Made by a program: the position numbers and the translations under genes
Part shown: positions 14,867 through 36,858 of the stretch, in pieces
How the letters are laid out: every line of letters begins with the position of its first letter
Position numbering within the stretch: position 1 is the stretch's first letter
NCBI GenBank assembly: GCA_963776345.1
Contig: CAVZMH010000017.1
Span: 32,001-96,000 of the forward strand
Reading direction: 5' to 3'
DNA from: an uncultured delta proteobacterium
GTDB lineage: Bacteria > Myxococcota > Myxococcia > Myxococcales > Myxococcaceae
Length of the DNA stretch: 64,000 bases
Notes under the pieces: generated by a model
Seen by the model: the letters and a program-made list of their open reading frames with translations, nothing else
Told to the model about the DNA's origin: nothing
Database searches by the model: none

Positions 14867-15250
14867 TCAGACGGCGATGGCCTGGGGCAGCGCTCCCAGG
14901 CGCCGGTCCGCGGTGAGGAGGCGGAGCGTCTCGACTTCGCACTGCGCGAGGAGCAGACGGTCGAACGGATCACCGTGCTCGAGGGCCACCCGTTCCACCG
15001 CCGTGGCGTGACGGAGGGTGACGTCGAGGGTCTCGAACCCCGCCTGCTCGACCGCCTCGAGCAACGACCCGAGCGGGCCCTCCAGCCGCAGCTTGCCGAG
15101 CGAAGCCTTGATCGCGATCTCCCAGGCGCTCGCGGCGCTGACCCAGCAGGTGTTCGCCGGGGCGGACAGGAGCGACCTCACTCCCCGCGAGAGCTTCGGG
15201 CTGTCGCTCAGGACCCAGAGGAGCACGTGCGTGTCCAGCAGGAGCTTCAC
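14867..15250 (-). CDS. vapC: Type II TA toxin, VapC/PIN domain
   Basis: 'LLLDTHVLLW', 'SAASAWEIAIK', 'HGDPFDRLL.AQ', 'LLTAD'. Confidence 0.92.
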   Translation of the reverse strand: MKLLLDTHVLLWVLSDSPKLSRGVRSLLSAPANTCWVSAASAWEIAIKASLGKLRLEGPLGSLLEAVEQAGFETLDVTLRHATAVERVALEHGDPFDRLLLAQCEVETLRLLTADRRLGALPQAIAV

Positions 15251-15610: not shown

Positions 15611-17836
15611 ATGTTCGTCGCCCTGGCCCGGGCCGTCTCCCGGCACCGCCTGGTGGTCCTCGCCTGCACCCTGGTGGTGCTGGCGCTGGCGGTGCTCGCC
15701 CTGGTCCGCGGCGGGAGCCTGACCAGCGGGACCATCGAGGGCACCGAGTCCTGGCAGGCCGCCGCGCTGGTCCGGGGCGCCGCCGGGGCCGACACCGACA
15801 CCAGCGTGGTCGCCCTGCTCACCCACGCGTCGATGCCTGCGACCGATCCGGTGTTCCAGGCGGCGATGGCCCTGGTGCTGGAGAAGGTCAGCGCCCGCCC
15901 CGAGGTGGAGGGCGTGGTCTCGGTGGTCACCGCGCCGGAGCAGGCCCGGAGCCGCTTCCTCTCGCCCGACGGCAAGGCCGCGCTGGTGCTGGTCCGCCTC
16001 AAGGGCGACGAGAAGGCGGCGGTGGGCGCGTTTCCGGCGGTGAAGGCCGCGCTGCGCGACGGTCCCTTCGACGTGGCGGTGACCGGGAAGCCGGCGTTCC
16101 TCGTCGACCTGAACACCCAGCTGGAGCACGACCTGCTCCGCGCCGAGCTCATCTCCTTCCCGCTCGCGCTGCTGGTCCTCCTCTCGGTGTTCGGGACGCT
16201 GGTCGCCGCGCTCCTGCCCATCGTGGTCGGCGGGCTCGCGGTGCTGGCCGGCGTCGCCGCGGTGCTCGCGCTCTCGCACCACCTGGACATGGCCCAGTAC
16301 ACGCTGAACGTGGTGACCCTCATCGGGCTCGGCGTGGCCATCGACTACTCGCTGTTCATGGTCAGCCGCTTCCGGGCCGAGCTGCACGCCGGGGCGAGCG
16401 TGGAGGCGGCGCTCGAGCGGACCGTCGACACCGCCGGGCGCGCGGTCGCCTTCTCCGGACTCGCGGTCGCGGCCGGGCTCTCGGGGCTGCTCTTCTACAA
16501 GGGCTCGTACCTCGCCGCGATGGGGCTGGGCGGGGCCATCGTCGTCGCCTTCTCGGTCCTCTTCTCGCTCACCGCGCTCCCGGCCATCCTCGGCTGGCTC
16601 GGCCCCCGCGTGGACATGGGGCGGGTGCCGATCCCGGCGTTCGGCCTGAAGGCCGGGGCGTGGGAGCGGATCGCCGGCTGGGTGATGGAGCATCCGCTCA
16701 GGGTGCTCCTGCCGACCCTGGGCTTCATCGCGCTGGTGGGCTGGCCCTTCGTCCGGCTCCAGACCGCCGGAACGGACATCACCGCGCTCCCGGAGTCGGC
16801 CGAGTCGCGCCAGGGCGCGGCGGCGCTGGACCGCGCCTTCCCCGGGCAGAATGCGACCCGCATCCTGGTCGCGGTGCGCTTCCCGGGCGCGCCCTTCACC
16901 CCCGACCGGGCCGGGGCGCTCTACGACGCGACCCGGCGCTGGGCCAAGCTCCCCGGTGTCGTCGGGGTGGAGAGCATCGTCGACCTCGACCCCAACGTGA
17001 CCCGCGACCAGTACGTCCAGCTCGCCGGCGCCGGGCCCGCCTTCCGGCCACCCGAGTTCGCGCTCGCAGAGGCGGCGTATCTGCACGGCGACGTCGCGGT
17101 GGCCCAGGTGCTCACCGCCGCCCCGGCGTCGAGCGTCGAGGCCCGGCGGCTCGTCGACGCGCTGCGGAAGGACCGCGTGGTGGGCGACGGGCGCGCCCTG
17201 GTCGGCGGGCAGAGCGCGGGCGACGTGGACTCGACCGCCTTCGTCCTCGACCGGGCGCCGCTCGCCGTCGGCTTCGTGGTCCTGGTCACGCTGGTGGCGC
17301 TCTTCGTCCTCCTCGGCTCCGTCGTCCTGCCGCTGAAGGCGGTGGTGATGAACTTCCTCTCCATCGCCGCGAGCTTCGGAGCGCTGGTGTGGATCTTCCA
17401 GGAGGGAAATCTGAAATCGCTGCTCGACTTCCAGCCCGGCCCGATCGAGCCCGCGCTTCCCGTGCTGCTCTTCTGCACCCTGTTCGGCCTGTCGATGGAC
17501 TACGAGGTCCTGATGCTCTCGCGGATGCGCGAGGAGTGGACCCGCACCCACGACAACCGGCACAGCGTGGCCGAGGGCCTGGAGCAGACCGGCAGCCTGA
17601 TCACCAGCGCCGCGGCGATCATGGTCGCGGTGTTCGCAGCCTTCGCCCTGGCCCGCATCCTGGTGGTGAAGGCGATGGGCGTGGGCATGGCGATCGCCGT
17701 GGCGCTGGACGCCACGCTGGTGCGGGTCCTGGTCGTCCCCGCCACGATGCGCCTCTTCGGGGCGGCGAACTGGTGGGCGCCGCGGGTGCTGAAGCGCCTG
17801 GCGCTCGCGGCGCATGGAGAGAAGAGCAGTCCATGA
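15611..17836 (+). CDS. MMPL/RND family lipid transporter (MmpL3-like)
   Basis: Two MMPL repeats with the Asp-Tyr pairs 'GVAIDYSLF' and 'GLSMDYEV'; 'LDATLVR..VVPATM...NWWAP'. Confidence 0.92.
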   Translation: MFVALARAVSRHRLVVLACTLVVLALAVLALVRGGSLTSGTIEGTESWQAAALVRGAAGADTDTSVVALLTHASMPATDPVFQAAMALVLEKVSARPEVEGVVSVVTAPEQARSRFLSPDGKAALVLVRLKGDEKAAVGAFPAVKAALRDGPFDVAVTGKPAFLVDLNTQLEHDLLRAELISFPLALLVLLSVFGTLVAALLPIVVGGLAVLAGVAAVLALSHHLDMAQYTLNVVTLIGLGVAIDYSLFMVSRFRAELHAGASVEAALERTVDTAGRAVAFSGLAVAAGLSGLLFYKGSYLAAMGLGGAIVVAFSVLFSLTALPAILGWLGPRVDMGRVPIPAFGLKAGAWERIAGWVMEHPLRVLLPTLGFIALVGWPFVRLQTAGTDITALPESAESRQGAAALDRAFPGQNATRILVAVRFPGAPFTPDRAGALYDATRRWAKLPGVVGVESIVDLDPNVTRDQYVQLAGAGPAFRPPEFALAEAAYLHGDVAVAQVLTAAPASSVEARRLVDALRKDRVVGDGRALVGGQSAGDVDSTAFVLDRAPLAVGFVVLVTLVALFVLLGSVVLPLKAVVMNFLSIAASFGALVWIFQEGNLKSLLDFQPGPIEPALPVLLFCTLFGLSMDYEVLMLSRMREEWTRTHDNRHSVAEGLEQTGSLITSAAAIMVAVFAAFALARILVVKAMGVGMAIAVALDATLVRVLVVPATMRLFGAANWWAPRVLKRLALAAHGEKSSP

Positions 17837-19023
17837 GCTCGGTCCTGGTCGTGCTGGTCGTCGTGGCGCTGCTCCTGCTGGTCGACGGGCACCTGCGGCT
17901 GTCCCGCGTCCTCCGCCGTCGCCCCCCGGCGCCGCCCTTTCCGGCGACCGCCCCGTCCATCACCGTCATCCGCCCGGTCAAGGGGCTGGACCCCGGCGCC
18001 GAGGACAACATCCGCGCGTTTCTCACGATGGAATACCCCGGGCGGCTCGAGCTGCTCTTCGTCGTCGACTCGGAGGAGGACCCGGCGTACCCGGCCATCA
18101 AGCGGCTCATCGCCGAGCACCCCACCACGGCGCAGCGGGTGGAGCTCCTGTTCTCGGGCTCGCCGCCGCCGCGGCGGACGGGGAAGCTCAACGCGATGCT
18201 GGTGGGCGTCGCCGCGGCCACCGGCGAGCTGCTGGCGTTCAACGACTCGGACAGCCGCCCGTCGAAGGACGTGCTGGGGCGGCTGGTCTCCGAGCTGCTC
18301 GCCCGGCCCGACTGCGGCTGCACCTTCGCCCCGGTGGTCGGCGAGGCGGATCGGCCCACCGCCGGCGACGTGGCGTACGGGCTCCTGATGAACGCCTGGT
18401 ACGGGCCCACGGTCTCCTGGGCCGCCGAGCCGAAGGGCGAGCTGGATTTCATCATGGGCCAGCTGATGGTGTGCCGGCGCGAGGCGCTCGACGCGGTGGG
18501 CGGGGTCGGCGTGGCCGAGGGCCAGTTCGTGGACGACATGGTCATCGGCCGCGCGCTCTGGAAGGCGGGCTGGAAGAACGTGGTGATCGAGGTGCCGCTG
18601 CGGATCGTCATCGGCGGCATGGGGCTCCTCCAGTTCTTGACGACCTTCCGCCGGTGGATGCTCTTCGGCGAGGGCGGTCTGTCCTTCCGCTTCACCTGGC
18701 CCAACTGGATGCGCGGCATCGCCTGCTGGATCGCCTGGGCGGCGCTGGGCGTGGCCCTCGCCACCGGGAACCTGGCCTCCGCAGGCCTCGCGCTCCTGCC
18801 CATCGCCTTCTCGGTGTGGACCCAGGCCTCGCTCCAGCGCGCGCACCACGGCCCGCGCATCGCGCTGCACCAGCTCTGGGTGCCGGCGGTGCTCCCGCTG
18901 GTGGCCGGCCTGGTGGCGCTCGCCGCCCGGCTGAACCGCCGGGTCGACTGGCGGGGCCGCAGCTACGAGCTGGACGGCGAGGCGCGACTCGACGCCAGCG
19001 GCTCGGCGTCGGCGGGGACGTGA
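17833..19023 (+). CDS. Membrane GT2/GT21 glycosyltransferase (HpnI/ceramide glucosyltransferase-like)
   Basis: N-terminal TM, 'VIRPVKGLD', 'EDPA', 'GKLNAM', DSD (DxD), 'DDMVIG', xxxRW, C-terminal TMs, 'VDWRGRSY'. ATGA-coupled to the MMPL gene. Confidence 0.88.
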   Translation: MSSVLVVLVVVALLLLVDGHLRLSRVLRRRPPAPPFPATAPSITVIRPVKGLDPGAEDNIRAFLTMEYPGRLELLFVVDSEEDPAYPAIKRLIAEHPTTAQRVELLFSGSPPPRRTGKLNAMLVGVAAATGELLAFNDSDSRPSKDVLGRLVSELLARPDCGCTFAPVVGEADRPTAGDVAYGLLMNAWYGPTVSWAAEPKGELDFIMGQLMVCRREALDAVGGVGVAEGQFVDDMVIGRALWKAGWKNVVIEVPLRIVIGGMGLLQFLTTFRRWMLFGEGGLSFRFTWPNWMRGIACWIAWAALGVALATGNLASAGLALLPIAFSVWTQASLQRAHHGPRIALHQLWVPAVLPLVAGLVALAARLNRRVDWRGRSYELDGEARLDASGSASAGT

Positions 19024-20354
19024 GGCGGATGGGCCAGGACCCGGTCCTCGACCGCCCCGGCCATCGCGGTGCGGAGGTGGGGCAGGGCCGAGGCGACCAG
19101 CATGGCTCCGGCGCTCACCGCCCGGCGCGGCCCGCGGACGGCCCTGACCGACCCCGCGCCCAGCGCGACCAGGCCGTGGGCCACCACGCGGGCGTACTCG
19201 CGCGCCATGACCGACATGCGAGCCTCGCGGGTGGAGAGCAGCGACATGGAGACGCGCGCCCCGGTCGGCGAGCGCTCCCAGTACCGGAACAGCCCGCGCC
19301 GCAGCGCCGCCATCTCGGCGGTGTCGCTGGAGAAGGCCTCGTAGAGCGCCGAGGCCAGCGCGATGCGGGTGCGGTTCGCCGGCCGGCGCGCGCTGGCGTA
19401 GGCGGCGAGCGCGCGCGGGAGGTCGTTCTTCGCGTCGGTCATCGCCCGGTGGAGCACGCGGGCGTCGCGCACCGCGGAGGCCATGCCACTGGCGCTCAGC
19501 GGGTGGCAGCAGCCCGCGGCGTCGCCCACCAGCACCACGTGACCCTTGTAGACGTGGTCCATGATGCGGGTGTCGTTGGAGGCGACCAGCGGCGGCTCGC
19601 GCTGGAGCGCATCGAGGATGGCCTGGCGCAGCGGCTGGGGCACGCCGGAGAGGATGTCCGGCTCGGTCCGGACGCGGTCGGGCGTGGAGCCGAGCGGCAG
19701 ATCCACCATCACCCGGGCGTGGGTGCCCGAGATGGGGTAGGCCAGCACCGGAGCGGGACCGCCGATGAAGAGGTGCCCGCGGTCCGGGTGCGGCAGCGTG
19801 TCCGCGGCCACCAGCACGCCGACCATGGTGGAGAGGCGATCGTGCCGCTCGGTGATGCCCAGCGCCCGGCGGAGCGGCGAGGCGCGGCCGTCCGCGGCCA
19901 CCAGCATGCGGGCACGCACGCGCTCGGAGTGTCCCTCGTGGGACAGCGTGGCCTCCACGCCGTCCGGCCCGTCCGAGAGCAGGTTGACCCGGGTCCTGCG
20001 ACGCACCTCGACGTCGCCGCGCTTCTCGAGGATGTCCAGCAGCGGGGTGATGAGCGCGTGGTGCTCGATGCCGAGGCCGCGGTTGCCCGGACCGTAGGGC
20101 AGGAGCGCGGTCGTCTCCTTGTCCACCACCGCGAAACCGACGATGGGCACGCCACCCGAGCGGAGCACCTCGGAGAACCCGAAGGCGGTCAGCTCCTCCA
20201 CGCCCACCGGATGGAGCAGCTCTCCGGCCAGCAGCTTCCGGCGGTCCTGCCCCGCGTCGGCGAGCAGGGTCCGCAGGCCAAGCTGGCCCATGGCTGCAGC
20301 GGTGGTGCACCCCGCGGGGCCACCACCGGCGACGAGCACGTCCACTTCGATCAA
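18963..20354 (-). CDS. Squalene epoxidase (squalene monooxygenase)
   Basis: GGGPAG FAD motif, 'GELLHPVG', 'VAADG..S.LRR', 'VGDAAGCCHPLSASGM', 'LASALYEAF', 'LRRGLFRY'. These parallel the SQLE/ERG1 motifs; adjacent to an OSC. Confidence 0.85.
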   Translation of the reverse strand: MIEVDVLVAGGGPAGCTTAAAMGQLGLRTLLADAGQDRRKLLAGELLHPVGVEELTAFGFSEVLRSGGVPIVGFAVVDKETTALLPYGPGNRGLGIEHHALITPLLDILEKRGDVEVRRRTRVNLLSDGPDGVEATLSHEGHSERVRARMLVAADGRASPLRRALGITERHDRLSTMVGVLVAADTLPHPDRGHLFIGGPAPVLAYPISGTHARVMVDLPLGSTPDRVRTEPDILSGVPQPLRQAILDALQREPPLVASNDTRIMDHVYKGHVVLVGDAAGCCHPLSASGMASAVRDARVLHRAMTDAKNDLPRALAAYASARRPANRTRIALASALYEAFSSDTAEMAALRRGLFRYWERSPTGARVSMSLLSTREARMSVMAREYARVVAHGLVALGAGSVRAVRGPRRAVSAGAMLVASALPHLRTAMAGAVEDRVLAHPPHVPADAEPLASSRASPSSS

Positions 20355-20446
20355 GGCAGCAACCTCACCCCGGCCCTTGTTTCCGGGCTTCTTATAGAGT
20401 TTGACGCCCCTCGGCGCACCCTCCGGGGTGTTTCACTGGGTGTCTC

Positions 20447-21487
20447 GTGACCGGAGCCGAAGATTTCTGCCGCCGCGCTCTTCCGGAGGTGTCCCGCACC
20501 TTCGCGCTGAACATCCCGGTCCTTCCTCCGCCGCTGGACCTGGTGGTCACCGTCGCCTACCTCCTGTGCCGCATCGCCGACACGCTGGAGGACGAGGCCC
20601 GGGGGCAGGTGTCGGAGCGCGCCGAGCTGTTTCACGCGCTCGGACAGCTGGTGACCCTCGCGCCGGGCTGGGAGAAGCGGGCCGAGGAGTTCGCGCGCCG
20701 CTCGGTCGCCGCGCTCCGCCCCTCCGCGCCCTCGGCCGAGGTGCAGCTGGTCCAGGGGACACCGACGGTCCTGGAGGCGATGAGCGGCCTGCCGGACTGG
20801 ACTCACCGCCACATCGCCGCCTGCGTGGGAGAGATGACCGGCGGGATGGCACAGGTGATGGCCGATCTCGACGGCGGCGCGCCGCAGGGCCTGCCGGATC
20901 TGCGCGACACCCTCCAGTACTGCTACTACGTCGCCGGAACGGTGGGGGTGATGCTCACCGGACTCTTCGTCGACGGGGTCGACTCGGTGCGGCCGCGGAA
21001 GGCCGAGCTCGGACCGCGGGCCCCGGCGTTCGGGCGGGCGCTGCAGCTCACCAACATCCTCAAGGACATCCGCGAGGACCTGGACCGCGGCTTCTGCTGG
21101 CTGCCGCGGACCTACCTGGCGCGGCACGGCCTCTCGCCGGCCACGCTGATCCTCCCCGAGCGCCGGACGGCCGCGGTCGCGTTGCTCGACGACCTGGTGG
21201 CGGTGGCCCGCCACGAGTGCGACGTGGCCTTCGAGTACTCGCTCTTGCTTCCGCCTACCGAGCCCGGGCTCCGGCTGTTCTGCCTCTGGCCGCTCCTGTT
21301 CGCGCTGCGCACGCTCGGGGCGCTGGCCCACAACCCGGCGGTGTTCGAGCCGGCGCCGGTGAAGATCGGCCGGGAGACGGTGATGCGGATCATGGTCCTC
21401 ACCCGGGAGAGCGTGGCCGACGACGGCGGCCTGCAGGCGCTCTACGCCGAGTGCGCCCGCGGTCTCCCCGAGGCTCGGGCGGGATGA
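20447..21487 (+). CDS. Squalene synthase (single-enzyme, FDFT1-like)
   Basis: 'VSRTFALNI', 'YLLCRIADTLED', 'YCYYVAGTVG', 'LQLTNILKDIREDL..G.CWLP'. Confidence 0.88.
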   Translation: MTGAEDFCRRALPEVSRTFALNIPVLPPPLDLVVTVAYLLCRIADTLEDEARGQVSERAELFHALGQLVTLAPGWEKRAEEFARRSVAALRPSAPSAEVQLVQGTPTVLEAMSGLPDWTHRHIAACVGEMTGGMAQVMADLDGGAPQGLPDLRDTLQYCYYVAGTVGVMLTGLFVDGVDSVRPRKAELGPRAPAFGRALQLTNILKDIREDLDRGFCWLPRTYLARHGLSPATLILPERRTAAVALLDDLVAVARHECDVAFEYSLLLPPTEPGLRLFCLWPLLFALRTLGALAHNPAVFEPAPVKIGRETVMRIMVLTRESVADDGGLQALYAECARGLPEARAG

Positions 21488-23430
21488 CTGCCCCGAGGAC
21501 GCGGGCCGGCGCCTCCGCCACCGAGCGGGGGCTGGAGGTGCTCGCCGCCACCCAGGACGTGGGCGGCTCGTGGAAGGGCGACTACGGCGGGCCGCTGTTC
21601 CTGGTGCCGGTGTACGTGGCCGGGCTCGAGCTCCTCGGGCGGCCGCCCGACGCCGGAACGCGCGACGGCTTCATCGGCTACCTCCGCGGGCACCAGAACC
21701 CGGACGGCGGCTGGGGGCTGGACGTCGAGTCGCACAGCCACGTCTTCACCTCGGTGCTGGTCTACGTGACCTTGCGGCTCCTGGGAGTGCCGGCCGAGGA
21801 CCCCCCGCTGCAGCGGGCGCGGGCCTGGTTCCTGCCACTCGGCGGGCCGCTGTCCAGCGGCTCGTGGGGAAAGTTCATCCTGGCGCTGCTCGGGCTGTAC
21901 GACTACGCGGGCCTGGTCCCGGTGCCGCCAGAGCTGTGGCTCTTGCCCGAGTCGCTGCCGCTGCACCCCTCGAAGCTCTGGTGCCACTGCCGGATGGTGT
22001 ACCTGCCGATGAGCTGGCTCTACGGCCGGCGGGTGCGCGCCACGGAGACGCCGCTGCTGGCAGCCATCCGCCGGGAGATCTACGCCGAGCCCTACCAGAC
22101 CGTCGATTGGCCCGCGGCGCGCGAGCGGGTGGCCGAGACGGATGCGTACACCCCGAGGACCTCGTACCTGCGCGCGGCGAACGGCGTGCTCGGGCTGTGG
22201 GAGCGGTTCGCCCCGGCGGGAGCGCGCGAGCGGGCGCTGGACCTCGTCCTGGATCAGATCCGCCGCGAGGACCAGGCGACCAGCTACATCTGCATCGGGC
22301 CCATCAACAAGGTGCTGAACACCGTGGTGTGGCACATCGCCCGGCCCGGCGGGCCCGAGGTCGAGGCCCATGTGAAGCGGCTGCCCGACTACCTGTGGCG
22401 CGCGGCCGACGGGCTGAAGATGCAGGGCTACAACTCCTCGGAGCTCTGGGACACCGCGTTCGCGGTGCAGGGCGTCCTGGCGACCGGGGAGAGCGAGCGG
22501 ATGCGCCCGTCGCTGGAGCGCGCGGCGCACTACCTCGAGTCCAACCAGGTGCTGGAGGACGTGCCGGAGATGGAGAAGGGCTACCGGCACCGGAGCCGCG
22601 GCGGCTGGCCGTTCTCCACCCGGGCGCACGGCTGGCCGATCAGCGACTGCACCGCGGAGGGGCTCAAGGCCTCGCTCCTGCTGGAGAAGGTGGGGATGAA
22701 CCAGGTCCCCCGCGTGCGGCTGCGCGAGGCGGTGGAGGAGATCCTCTCGCTGCAGAACGAGGACGGCGGCTGGGCGACCTACGAGCTGCAGCGCGGGCCG
22801 AAGTGGCTCGAGGCGCTGAACCCCTCGGACGTCTTCTCGACCATCATGGTGGACGTCTCCTACGTCGAGTGCACCTCGGCCTGCGTGCAGGCGCTCGCCG
22901 CGTGGAGAGCCTTCGCCCCCGAGGACGCGCGGTGGCTGCGCGGGCCGATCCGCCGGGGCGAGCGGTTCATCCGGAAGGTGCAGCGCGCCGACGGCTCCTG
23001 GGAGGGCAGCTGGGGCGTGTGCTTCAGCTACGGCGCCTGGTTCGGGACCACGGGGCTGGTCGCCGCGGGAGCGCGGCCGGACGACCCGGCGCTCCGGCGC
23101 GCGGCGGACTACCTCGAGGCCCGGCAGCGCCCGGACGGGAGCTGGAGCGAGACGCTGGAGTCCAACCGCGCGCGGCGCTGGGTGGACGGGGCGCGCGGCC
23201 ACGCGGTGCAGACCTCGTGGGCGCTCCTGTCGCTGGCGGCCTGCGGGCGGCGCGACTCGGAGGCGGTGCGGCGCGGCGTGGCCTGGCTCCGGGAGCACCA
23301 GGGCGAGGACGGCCGCTGGCCCGAGCAGCCCATCACCGGCGTCTTCAACCGGACCAGCGCGATCCACTACGACATCTACCTGCGGCTCTTTCCCGTCTGG
23401 GCGCTCGCGGTCTGCGGCGCCGAGCGCTGA
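21484..23430 (+). CDS. osc: 2,3-oxidosqualene cyclase, predicted cycloartenol synthase
   Basis: DCTAE catalytic motif (not the DXDD of SHC), 'DYGGPLFL', 'WCHCRMVYLPM', 'CIGPINK', 'MQGYN', QxxDGxW repeats, 'GSWGVCFSYG', 'GVFN'. Confidence 0.95.
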   Translation: MTAPRTRAGASATERGLEVLAATQDVGGSWKGDYGGPLFLVPVYVAGLELLGRPPDAGTRDGFIGYLRGHQNPDGGWGLDVESHSHVFTSVLVYVTLRLLGVPAEDPPLQRARAWFLPLGGPLSSGSWGKFILALLGLYDYAGLVPVPPELWLLPESLPLHPSKLWCHCRMVYLPMSWLYGRRVRATETPLLAAIRREIYAEPYQTVDWPAARERVAETDAYTPRTSYLRAANGVLGLWERFAPAGARERALDLVLDQIRREDQATSYICIGPINKVLNTVVWHIARPGGPEVEAHVKRLPDYLWRAADGLKMQGYNSSELWDTAFAVQGVLATGESERMRPSLERAAHYLESNQVLEDVPEMEKGYRHRSRGGWPFSTRAHGWPISDCTAEGLKASLLLEKVGMNQVPRVRLREAVEEILSLQNEDGGWATYELQRGPKWLEALNPSDVFSTIMVDVSYVECTSACVQALAAWRAFAPEDARWLRGPIRRGERFIRKVQRADGSWEGSWGVCFSYGAWFGTTGLVAAGARPDDPALRRAADYLEARQRPDGSWSETLESNRARRWVDGARGHAVQTSWALLSLAACGRRDSEAVRRGVAWLREHQGEDGRWPEQPITGVFNRTSAIHYDIYLRLFPVWALAVCGAER

Positions 23431-35463: not shown

Positions 35464-35571
35464 TTGGTCCGGGCGACATAACGACCGACCCGTCGGGACG
35501 CGGTCCGATGTCGAAGGGCCGCTGATGCCAGCATGTCGTCGGGGCGAGGGACCGTGCTACGCCAGCGCGCG

Positions 35572-36858
35572 ATGGAGCGGTCGGGACAGGCGTCGGGGCC
35601 GGAGAGCTGGGGCCGGTACCCCCGGGTGGCGCAAGAGGCATGGCCGCTGGCGTGGGCGGACGATCCGCTCCCCTCCGGCGCGCCGGTGCTGGCGTACGGG
35701 ATGGGCCGCAGCTACGGCGACAGCTGCCTGAACGCCGACGGGCCGGTGCTCCTGACGCGCGCGCTGAGGCGCTTCCTGTCGTTCGACGCGGACGCCGGGG
35801 TGCTACGGGCCGAGGCGGGCACCTCGCTCGGAGAGGTGACCGAGCTGGCCCTGGGCAAGGGGTGGCTGCCACCGGTATTGCCGGGGACGCAGTTCGTCAC
35901 CCTGGGCGGGGCGGTGGCGAACGACATCCACGGCAAGAACCACCACCGGGCCGGCGCGTTCGGGCGGTACGTCCGGGCGCTGGGGCTCCGGCGGAGCGAC
36001 GGGAGCGTCCACGCGCTCCACGCGGGCGAGCCGCTGTTCGAGGCCACGGTGGCGGGGCTCGGGCTGACCGGGCTCATCACCTGGGTGGAGCTCCAGCTCG
36101 AGCGGGTGCCGAGCGGGTGGGTGGAGGCGGAGGCGGTGCGCTTCCGCTCGCTCGACGAGCTGGAGGCGCTAGACGACGTGGCGCGAGCGACGCACGCCTA
36201 CACGGTGGCCTGGATCGACGGGCTTGCGCGGGGCCGGGCGCTGGGGCGCGGCGTGTACTTCCGGGGCAACCTGGCCGAGGGACCCGCGACCCCGCCGCGG
36301 CGCCCGAGCCCGAGGAACGTCCCGCTCGAGGCACCGGATTTTCTCATGTCGCCGCTCCTCCTCCGCGCCTTCAACGCGCTCTACGACCACCTGCCGCGGG
36401 GGCGCTCGCGCGCCTCGGTGTGGAAGTTCTTCCATCCGCTCGACGCGCTCGGGGGCTGGAACCGTCTCTACGGGCGGCGCGGCTTCTTCCAGCACCAGTC
36501 GGTGGTGCCGGACATGGAGGGCGTGCGGGCGCTGCTCGCGCTGACGTCGACGCGAGGGCAGGGCGCGTTCCTCTCGGTGCTGAAGCGCTTCGGCTCGCTG
36601 TCCTCGCCCGGGATGCTGTCGTTCCCGCGCCCGGGATGGACGCTCGCCCTGGACGTGCCGAACCGTGGCGAGGAGACGCTGGCCTACCTCGACGAGATGG
36701 ACGCGGCGGTGCGGACCTACGGCGGGGCGATGTACCCCGCCAAGGACGCGCGGATGTCGGGCGAGACCTTCCGGCTCGGGTATCCGCGACTGGACGCGTT
36801 CGCGGCGTTCGTCGACCCGGGGTTCCGCTCCCGCTTTTGGGCCCGGGTGATGGGATGA
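35572..36858 (+). CDS. FAD-linked oxidoreductase, DprE1-like (decaprenylphosphoryl-ribose 2'-oxidase)
   Basis: 'GMGRSYGD', 'PGTQFVTLGGAVANDIHGKNHH..G.FG', 'PLD...WNRLYG..GF.Q.Q', 'VLKRFG', 'LSFP..G.TLALD', 'YPAKD'. Confidence 0.88.
   Translation: MERSGQASGPESWGRYPRVAQEAWPLAWADDPLPSGAPVLAYGMGRSYGDSCLNADGPVLLTRALRRFLSFDADAGVLRAEAGTSLGEVTELALGKGWLPPVLPGTQFVTLGGAVANDIHGKNHHRAGAFGRYVRALGLRRSDGSVHALHAGEPLFEATVAGLGLTGLITWVELQLERVPSGWVEAEAVRFRSLDELEALDDVARATHAYTVAWIDGLARGRALGRGVYFRGNLAEGPATPPRRPSPRNVPLEAPDFLMSPLLLRAFNALYDHLPRGRSRASVWKFFHPLDALGGWNRLYGRRGFFQHQSVVPDMEGVRALLALTSTRGQGAFLSVLKRFGSLSSPGMLSFPRPGWTLALDVPNRGEETLAYLDEMDAAVRTYGGAMYPAKDARMSGETFRLGYPRLDAFAAFVDPGFRSRFWARVMG

Follow-up and report, generated by a model that had tools for sequence, protein, structure and literature searches.

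A myxobacterial gene cassette predicted to synthesise, glycosylate and export cycloartenol

Introduction

In Helicobacter pylori and Borrelia burgdorferi, cholesteryl glycosides are formed by a nucleotide-sugar transferase that puts a sugar on the 3-hydroxyl of the sterol, and the review on which we draw (PMC7666875) bears out the statement in a preliminary description of the DNA studied here that this cholesterol comes from the host. Here we analyse a five-gene cassette in a stretch of 64,000 nucleotides (the window) from an uncultured myxobacterium of the family Myxococcaceae (contig CAVZMH010000017.1, positions 32,001 to 96,000). It encodes a predicted cycloartenol pathway together with a lipid transporter and a putative sterol glycosyltransferase. 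If our reading of the latter holds, the cassette would resemble the Helicobacter and Borrelia systems in its chemistry, but the sterol would be self-made, the organism is free-living and the enzyme is GT21-like.

Cycloartenol synthesis has been described in the Myxococcaceae Stigmatella aurantiaca and Cystobacter fuscus (PMC4919349; 10.1101/2024.11.01.621555), where, as in the present locus, the gene for squalene epoxidase (SQE) lies next to that for a cycloartenol-type oxidosqualene cyclase (OSC) and no CYP51 was found. It was suggested that in Myxococcaceae cycloartenol undergoes no further modification, and the main text of that report does not mention glycosylation (10.1101/2024.11.01.621555). 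In genomes matching these two genera we observed the same MMPL-family transporter (MMPL) beside the OSC as here, whereas the present cassette adds a glycosyltransferase (GT). Sterol conjugates are indicated in Enhygromyxa, Calothrix and Planctomycetes, sterol producers in which the sterol was released by hydrolysis only, and steryl glucosides were named as a possibility (Lee 2023, PMC10202945). No intact conjugate or enzyme was identified in that study, which states that in sterol-producing bacteria such conjugates had yet to be identified, and the conjugates of E. salina ran with the free sterols in polarity, unlike a glycoside.

With regard to the gene layout, hopanoid loci also hold a GT21-like enzyme (HpnI) and an RND transporter (HpnN) beside a triterpene cyclase. 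Methylococcus capsulatus encodes an MMPL-family inner-membrane protein, BstA, by its sterol genes (PMC10942540, PMC11713862); BstA resembles HpnN and handles demethylated sterols in concert with BstB and BstC, whereas the MMPL studied here resembles MmpL3 and no such partners are encoded within the cassette. Mycobacterial MmpL3 shares its fold and Asp-Tyr pairs with this MMPL at about 30% identity, but the host of the cassette is Gram-negative and no mycolates are expected in it. Eukaryotic ceramide glucosyltransferase shares the GT-A motifs of the cassette GT, which nevertheless forms its own subfamily, apart from a nearer paralogue. Full-text literature searches of the main texts of openly available papers returned no description of the cassette GT or of a de novo bacterial steryl glycoside. 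The main texts of PMC8237579 and PMC7306690 contain nothing on glycosylation, MMPL or transporters, and the synteny figure of PMC7306690 could show the neighbouring genes.

Results

Based on Pfam and NCBIfam models, all five contiguous genes that had been described at 15611..23430 were found in place and intact, with their families confirmed and without internal stops in any of the open reading frames (ORFs). They encode an MmpL3-like RND lipid transporter (MMPL; 15611-17836, + strand, 741 aa; PF03176, 253 bits), a GT2/GT21-like membrane glycosyltransferase (GT; 17833-19023, + strand, 396 aa; PF13506, 65 bits), a squalene epoxidase or squalene monooxygenase (SQE; 20354-18963, - strand, 463 aa; PF08491, 110 bits), a squalene synthase of the single-enzyme Sqs type (SQS; 20447-21487, + strand, 346 aa; PF00494, 167 bits) and an OSC with a cycloartenol-synthase signature (21484-23430, + strand, 648 aa; TIGR03463, 882 bits). 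The stop of MMPL and the start of GT overlap in the sequence ATGA, as do SQS and OSC. SQE is convergent with GT, whose 3' end it overlaps by 61 bp, and divergent from SQS with 92 bp between them; these orientations imply three transcription units rather than a single operon. The GC content of the cassette is that of the window. The same gene order was found again in loci from genomes and metagenomes with identities as low as about 50% and is therefore not due to chance, and the cassette is real and conserved. Its nearest relatives are labelled as Myxococcaceae metagenome-assembled genomes, and the source genome measures 5.1 Mb at 98% completeness. A promoter and terminator scan of the locus gave no signal above that of shuffled sequences. 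The single RNA run for a related locus (L085, genus g5) showed flat coverage over genes and flanks with records up to 41 kb, which is DNA-like. Next to the cassette, a PIN-domain gene (window 14867-15250, - strand) lies between it and a beta-helix gene pair and is not at that place in related loci.

SQS, SQE and OSC together lead to a 3beta-hydroxy protosterol. The OSC scores above the TIGR03463 cut-off (882 versus 851 bits), matches human lanosterol synthase at E 2e-181 and has its DCTAE motif at 388. In the alignment its residues H168, Y316, H382, I386 and D388 correspond to human 232, 381, 449, 453 and 455, so that the cycloartenol-synthase rule Y381/H449/I453 (human numbering) is satisfied by Y316/H382/I386; H449 and I453 are present in the cassette OSCs examined, and I453 has been given as a mark of cycloartenol producers (Wei et al. 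2016, PMC4919349). For SQE the single PDB match at E<1e-15 was the squalene monooxygenase 6c6n, and the flavin adenine dinucleotide (FAD) motifs are present. The top PDB matches of SQS were squalene synthases, and its DTLED sequence at 45 agrees with the DTxxD motif typical of Sqs; it scores below the cut-off of TIGR01559 (96.9 versus 286.75 bits), yet this is its best NCBIfam model. Both enzymes thus match solved eukaryotic counterparts. Sterol synthesis by the three enzymes, as previously proposed, is well supported by these sequence features, and the proposal can be narrowed to cycloartenol as the expected product of the cyclase.

Beyond the OSC, no squalene-hopene cyclase (SHC) or other triterpene or terpenoid cyclase was found in the source genome, so a hopanoid is an unlikely acceptor for GT and was rejected as a candidate. 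No CYP51 was found in the source genome either: two of its three P450s gave no CYP51 match at E<1e-45 against solved structures, and for the third a CYP152-type model gave the highest score. The preliminary description had noted that CYP51 and reductase genes are missing from the window, which holds for the 33 ORFs scanned, among which neither CYP51 nor a sterol reductase was detected; the genome does carry an unlinked ERG4/ERG24-family sterol-reductase-like gene (G000:C22:336073-337149, locus L225). This family occurs in 15 of 59 genomes, in genera g1, g6 and g35, and is absent from the g5, g9 and g2 carriers tested, and we rejected it as part of the pathway core. A FAD oxidoreductase in the window (35482-36858, + strand) was considered as a sterol C-24 reductase and rejected as DprE1-like.

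Several variants of the sterol genes were encountered in related loci. SQE and SQS are fused in one ORF in L079:5057-8647, L082:10546-14082, L093:4729-8127, L146:2176-4644 and L213:2409-5216; these fusions adjoin OSC or MMPL-GT, and some contain, in the middle, a segment with weak similarity to the C-terminal domain of a cyclase. SQE and OSC form one long frame in L071:8304-17450 (G065), and L072 (G103) encodes a 1528-aa fusion of HMG-CoA reductase, polyprenyl synthase, squalene synthase and a 3beta-HSD-like part. An HMG-CoA reductase gene adjoins the cassette or its sterol genes in L086:14509-15849, L009:4175-5677, L078:5104-6429 and L067:1001-3346, and a U32-family gene directly precedes OSC in L070:7024-8706 (G054).

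The closest solved sequence to GT was human ceramide glucosyltransferase (E 1e-15). The D, DxD, catalytic D and RW motifs of GT2/GT21 enzymes are present, and D79, K118, D138-S-D140, D234-D235 and R274-W275 are invariant across its orthologues; in the (Q/R)xxRW motif the Q/R position is not conserved and is T271 here. The structural model (predicted local distance difference test, pLDDT, 93) has the GT2 membrane fold of the GT-A type, and Foldseek returned general GT2 membrane enzymes alone, none pointing to an acceptor. GT is under purifying selection: in comparisons with five close orthologue loci, the ratio of nonsynonymous to synonymous substitution rates was about 0.25-0.30, with identical values within two pairs of these loci. 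The subfamily to which it belongs is discrete: our survey of 401 Myxococcota genomes yielded 58 matches at E<1e-70, the next match being at 1e-30, and a search of the full library retrieved 68 representatives with E values up to 1e-30. In a quick FastTree phylogeny, from which three loci were dropped for short alignments, a long, weakly supported branch (0.72) set GT apart from the HpnI-like paralogues. GT reaches 127 bits with the HpnI model TIGR03472, below the cut-off of 310. As a side observation, a GT gene above this cut-off (G147:C146:21342-22454) was seen in a genome in which neither a triterpene cyclase nor a squalene synthase was found. On genomic and literature grounds, GT is predicted to be a sterol 3-O-glycosyltransferase.

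The MMPL found its best PDB sequence match in MmpL3 (E 3e-83), as compared to only 5e-9 for HpnN. Its model (pLDDT 86.9) likewise superimposed better on MmpL3 (template modelling score 0.89) than on HpnN (0.69). D245-Y246 and D630-Y631 correspond to D256-Y257 and D645-Y646 of MmpL3 and are invariant in 48 homologues; we take these Asp-Tyr pairs to have a proton-relay role. The protein scores below the MmpL3 model NF052608 (345 bits, cut-off 1400) and below the HpnN models TIGR03480 and NF052374 (48 and 37 bits, the former against a cut-off of 752); that it works like MmpL3 is suggested by the model comparison and the conserved Asp-Tyr pairs. The likeness to the hopanoid HpnI/HpnN layout, of which the cassette had been called the sterol counterpart, is thus one of analogy and not of orthology, as the MMPL is far from HpnN, GT falls under the HpnI cut-off and the cyclase is an OSC. 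A search of the cassette, which did not extend to the rest of the genome, gave no BstB or BstC partner genes beside MMPL.

Of the 401 genomes surveyed, 56 had a close MMPL orthologue, and every one of these contained an OSC. MMPL also adjoins OSC without GT in 13 genomes, ten with a close orthologue and three of family f27, in which a 51%-identity orthologue lies beside a lanosterol-type OSC. Since MMPL accompanies OSC with or without GT, it appears tied to sterol synthesis itself and is probably a sterol exporter in general; sterol export by this MmpL3-like protein is likely. MMPL is thus not specific to a glycoside, which corrects the earlier proposal on this point. Among carriers of a more distant MMPL (43-55% identity), 8 of 20 genomes were without OSC. 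In the MMPL tree the GT-less Stigmatella- and Cystobacter-like proteins are nested among GT-linked ones, which suggests that GT was lost in these lineages. In L102:4207-9375 (G397) the MMPL orthologue makes up the C-terminal part of a 1723-aa frame, which includes a squalene-synthase-like segment as well.

Additionally, we determined how GT is distributed relative to OSC, which is present in 112 of the 401 genomes as background. Orthologues of at least 52% identity were regarded as close (46 genomes), and 12 further genomes are distant carriers. Every one of the 46 close carriers had an OSC, within 6.5 kb of GT in 45 and separated by a contig end in the last; for all carriers the figure was 54/58. 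In genus g9 GT, OSC and MMPL were found in the same 6 of 32 genomes and in genus g6 in the same 6 of 7, where each co-distribution may reflect one event. Metagenome loci, taken as the best 79 of 249 matches and counted where there was room for the gene, showed the same linkage at 50% identity to GT or above (MMPL 61/62, SQE 52/53, OSC 33/34). More independent support than these cassette counts comes from two loci: in L146 a g1-type MMPL-GT pair adjoins an SQE-SQS fusion and an OSC whose grouping is with the Cystobacter-like lineage, and L213 has a GT of a separate branch co-oriented with MMPL and an SQE-SQS fusion. The refuting outcome named in the preliminary description, orthologues mostly in genomes or loci without OSC, thus did not arise for the close GT orthologues, all of which are in OSC genomes; in 3 of the 12 distant carriers no cyclase or squalene synthase was detected. 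One further apparent OSC-less carrier, G331, was rejected: SQE and the beginning of SQS lie there at a contig end that is homologous to the cassette region of G315, and its OSC therefore probably lies in an assembly gap.

The neighbours of the distant carriers' GT genes include START-type genes, GH38 hydrolases and an MMPL or a sterol-sensing-domain RND protein. Homologous lipid-binding genes of the START/polyketide-cyclase type lie directly upstream of GT in L061, L062, L063 and L219, two of them in genomes with no cyclase found. GH38 hydrolases adjoin GT in L055, L065, L210 and L222 and fall into two unrelated groups with about 25% identity between them; they might hint at the sugar or at turnover, and no GH38 was found in the source genome. 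In L223:8216-10018 an RND protein with a sterol-sensing domain is convergent with GT.

Cultured relatives permit a comparison with published lipid analyses. By identity to named MMPL proteins, genus g3 resembles Stigmatella, g14 Cystobacter and g5 Corallococcus. Profile searches found a GT orthologue in none of four g3 and none of five OSC-bearing g14 genomes, closed ones included, whereas all 21 g5 genomes had the cassette with GT; Corallococcus coralloides DSM 2259 encodes the GT orthologue P0054, within the g5 clade. Free cycloartenol is listed for Stigmatella and Cystobacter (Wei et al., PMC4919349, Table 3), with squalene alongside it in C. fuscus, whereas C. coralloides DSM 2259 yielded squalene and no sterol, although its SQE and OSC were judged likely functional; Bode 2003 is cited there for the same Corallococcus result. 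The lipid method in that paper used an acetylated total extract, and its text describes no hydrolysis or saponification step. If cycloartenol is converted to a glycoside in Corallococcus, squalene without free sterol would follow in such an unhydrolysed extract. For the cyclase mutant of Stigmatella no phenotype is noted (PMC6606645).

Discussion

We consider it moderately probable that the cassette is responsible for the de novo synthesis and export of a cycloartenyl glycoside. SQS, SQE and OSC would convert farnesyl diphosphate to cycloartenol, and GT would transfer a sugar from a nucleotide-sugar, for which glucose, N-acetylglucosamine (GlcNAc), galactose or mannose are candidates, to its 3-hydroxyl. 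As GT2 chemistry is inverting, the linkage would be expected to be beta, and the active site of GT is predicted to face the cytoplasm. The role of MMPL would then be to carry the sterol, glycosylated or not, through the inner membrane in the direction of the cell envelope. Glycosylation of the sterol by GT is the best reading of the gene content and distribution, and our confidence in it is fair. A wider proposal, that a new class of sterol glycosyltransferases derived from GT21 glycosylates nearly all of the cycloartenol in Corallococcus, in some Myxococcus and in many soil myxobacteria that are uncultured, with export of the product by an MmpL3-type flippase, is more tentative, and we would place its chances slightly below even.

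A number of observations weigh against sterol glycosylation. The closest characterised relatives of GT act on ceramide or hopanoid. Ceramide glucosyltransferase and HpnI use primary alcohols, whereas the 3-hydroxyl of cycloartenol is secondary and has a 4,4-dimethyl group as its neighbour. The counts within the close clade are not independent, since they largely follow the inheritance of a single cassette, and L146 and L213 are each a single metagenome contig. A Fisher test of the distribution was not relied upon, as the relatedness of the genomes inflates its significance. At lower identity the link fades: the metagenome loci below 50% had SQE in 2/9 and OSC in 0/4 among the same best 79 of 249 matches, and GT is next to OSC in none of the 12 distant carriers, 8 of which have OSC elsewhere. 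In G147, G094 and G059, carriers that are 94-98% complete, no cyclase and no squalene synthase were found. Family f12 has OSC in 1 of 3 GT carriers versus 8/17 overall, in L019 and L212 no sterol gene accompanies MMPL-GT on the stretch covered, and 58 of the 112 OSC genomes are without GT. The neighbours of the distant orthologues are compatible with a scavenged sterol or another lipid. Finally, the authors of the Corallococcus analysis suggest a silent epoxidase for the squalene build-up (PMC4919349), and an unexpressed epoxidase would equally fit that result.

GT could instead be a second glycosyltransferase for ceramide or another non-sterol lipid, kept in the cassette owing to a joint function of sterol and glycosphingolipid in the outer membrane, with the sterol staying free and exported by MMPL. 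The similarity to ceramide glucosyltransferase and the annotation of the family under this name by sequence sources speak for this, as do the START-type genes beside four distant orthologues, given that START domains bind ceramide or sterol. We surveyed 70 chosen genomes for serine palmitoyltransferase (SPT), calling genes SPT-like at 475 bits or more; that of the source genome scored 512 bits, below the cut-off of 640 of a model built on another phylum. An SPT-like gene was present in 44/46 close carriers, in favour of the ceramide reading, but equally in 12/12 GT-negative controls, and in only 1/12 distant carriers, of which three others are ambiguous at 356-389 bits. The cassette GT thus follows OSC better than SPT. 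Moreover, a nearer enzyme is available for ceramide: a second GT21 paralogue in the source genome is closer to human ceramide glucosyltransferase over the whole length (93 versus 60 bits for the cassette GT) and occurs in 44/46 close carriers, 11/12 controls and 4/12 distant carriers. As the ceramide explanation also leaves the missing free sterol of Corallococcus unaccounted for, we regard it as unlikely.

The distant carriers raise the further thought that GT glycosylates scavenged as well as self-made sterol, in predatory uptake or detoxification, with the de novo link being secondary and MMPL perhaps moving free sterol alone. The three GT-bearing genomes in which neither a cyclase nor a squalene synthase was found are in line with this (two of them have a START-type gene and one has an MMPL beside GT), and so are the 13 genomes with MMPL beside OSC without GT and the OSC-less carriers of the more distant MMPL. 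In the clade of the window, by contrast, GT is physically tied to the synthesis genes in 45 of 46 cases, which makes a scavenging role rather improbable. Still less probable, in our view, is that GT and MMPL have nothing to do with the missing sterol, SQE being unexpressed under culture conditions, perhaps because the convergent transcript of MMPL-GT dampens it, and GT acting on another terpenoid alcohol. The squalene accumulated by C. coralloides and the convergent 61-bp overlap agree with this scenario, and another GT2 of the source genome sits in a carotenoid cluster. However, C. fuscus contains squalene too, alongside cycloartenol, no other terpenoid cyclase was found in the source genome, and conservation of the linkage across three layouts suggests that the genes share a pathway.

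If the sterol of the cassette is indeed glycosylated and exported as proposed, the cassette would represent the first complete bacterial pathway to a steryl glycoside made de novo, and the acceptors of the GT21 family would widen from ceramide and hopanoid to sterols. It would also provide a second, independent bacterial sterol-export system, with an MmpL3-type exporter beside BstA. A GT that likely tags the sterol with a sugar would explain why some cultured relatives have intact sterol genes yet no free sterol, their sterol forming a hidden pool that is missed by gas chromatography-mass spectrometry of free sterols. Surveys of free sterols would then undercount bacterial sterol producers, which would bear on sterane biomarkers and on the roles of myxobacteria in sterol evolution.

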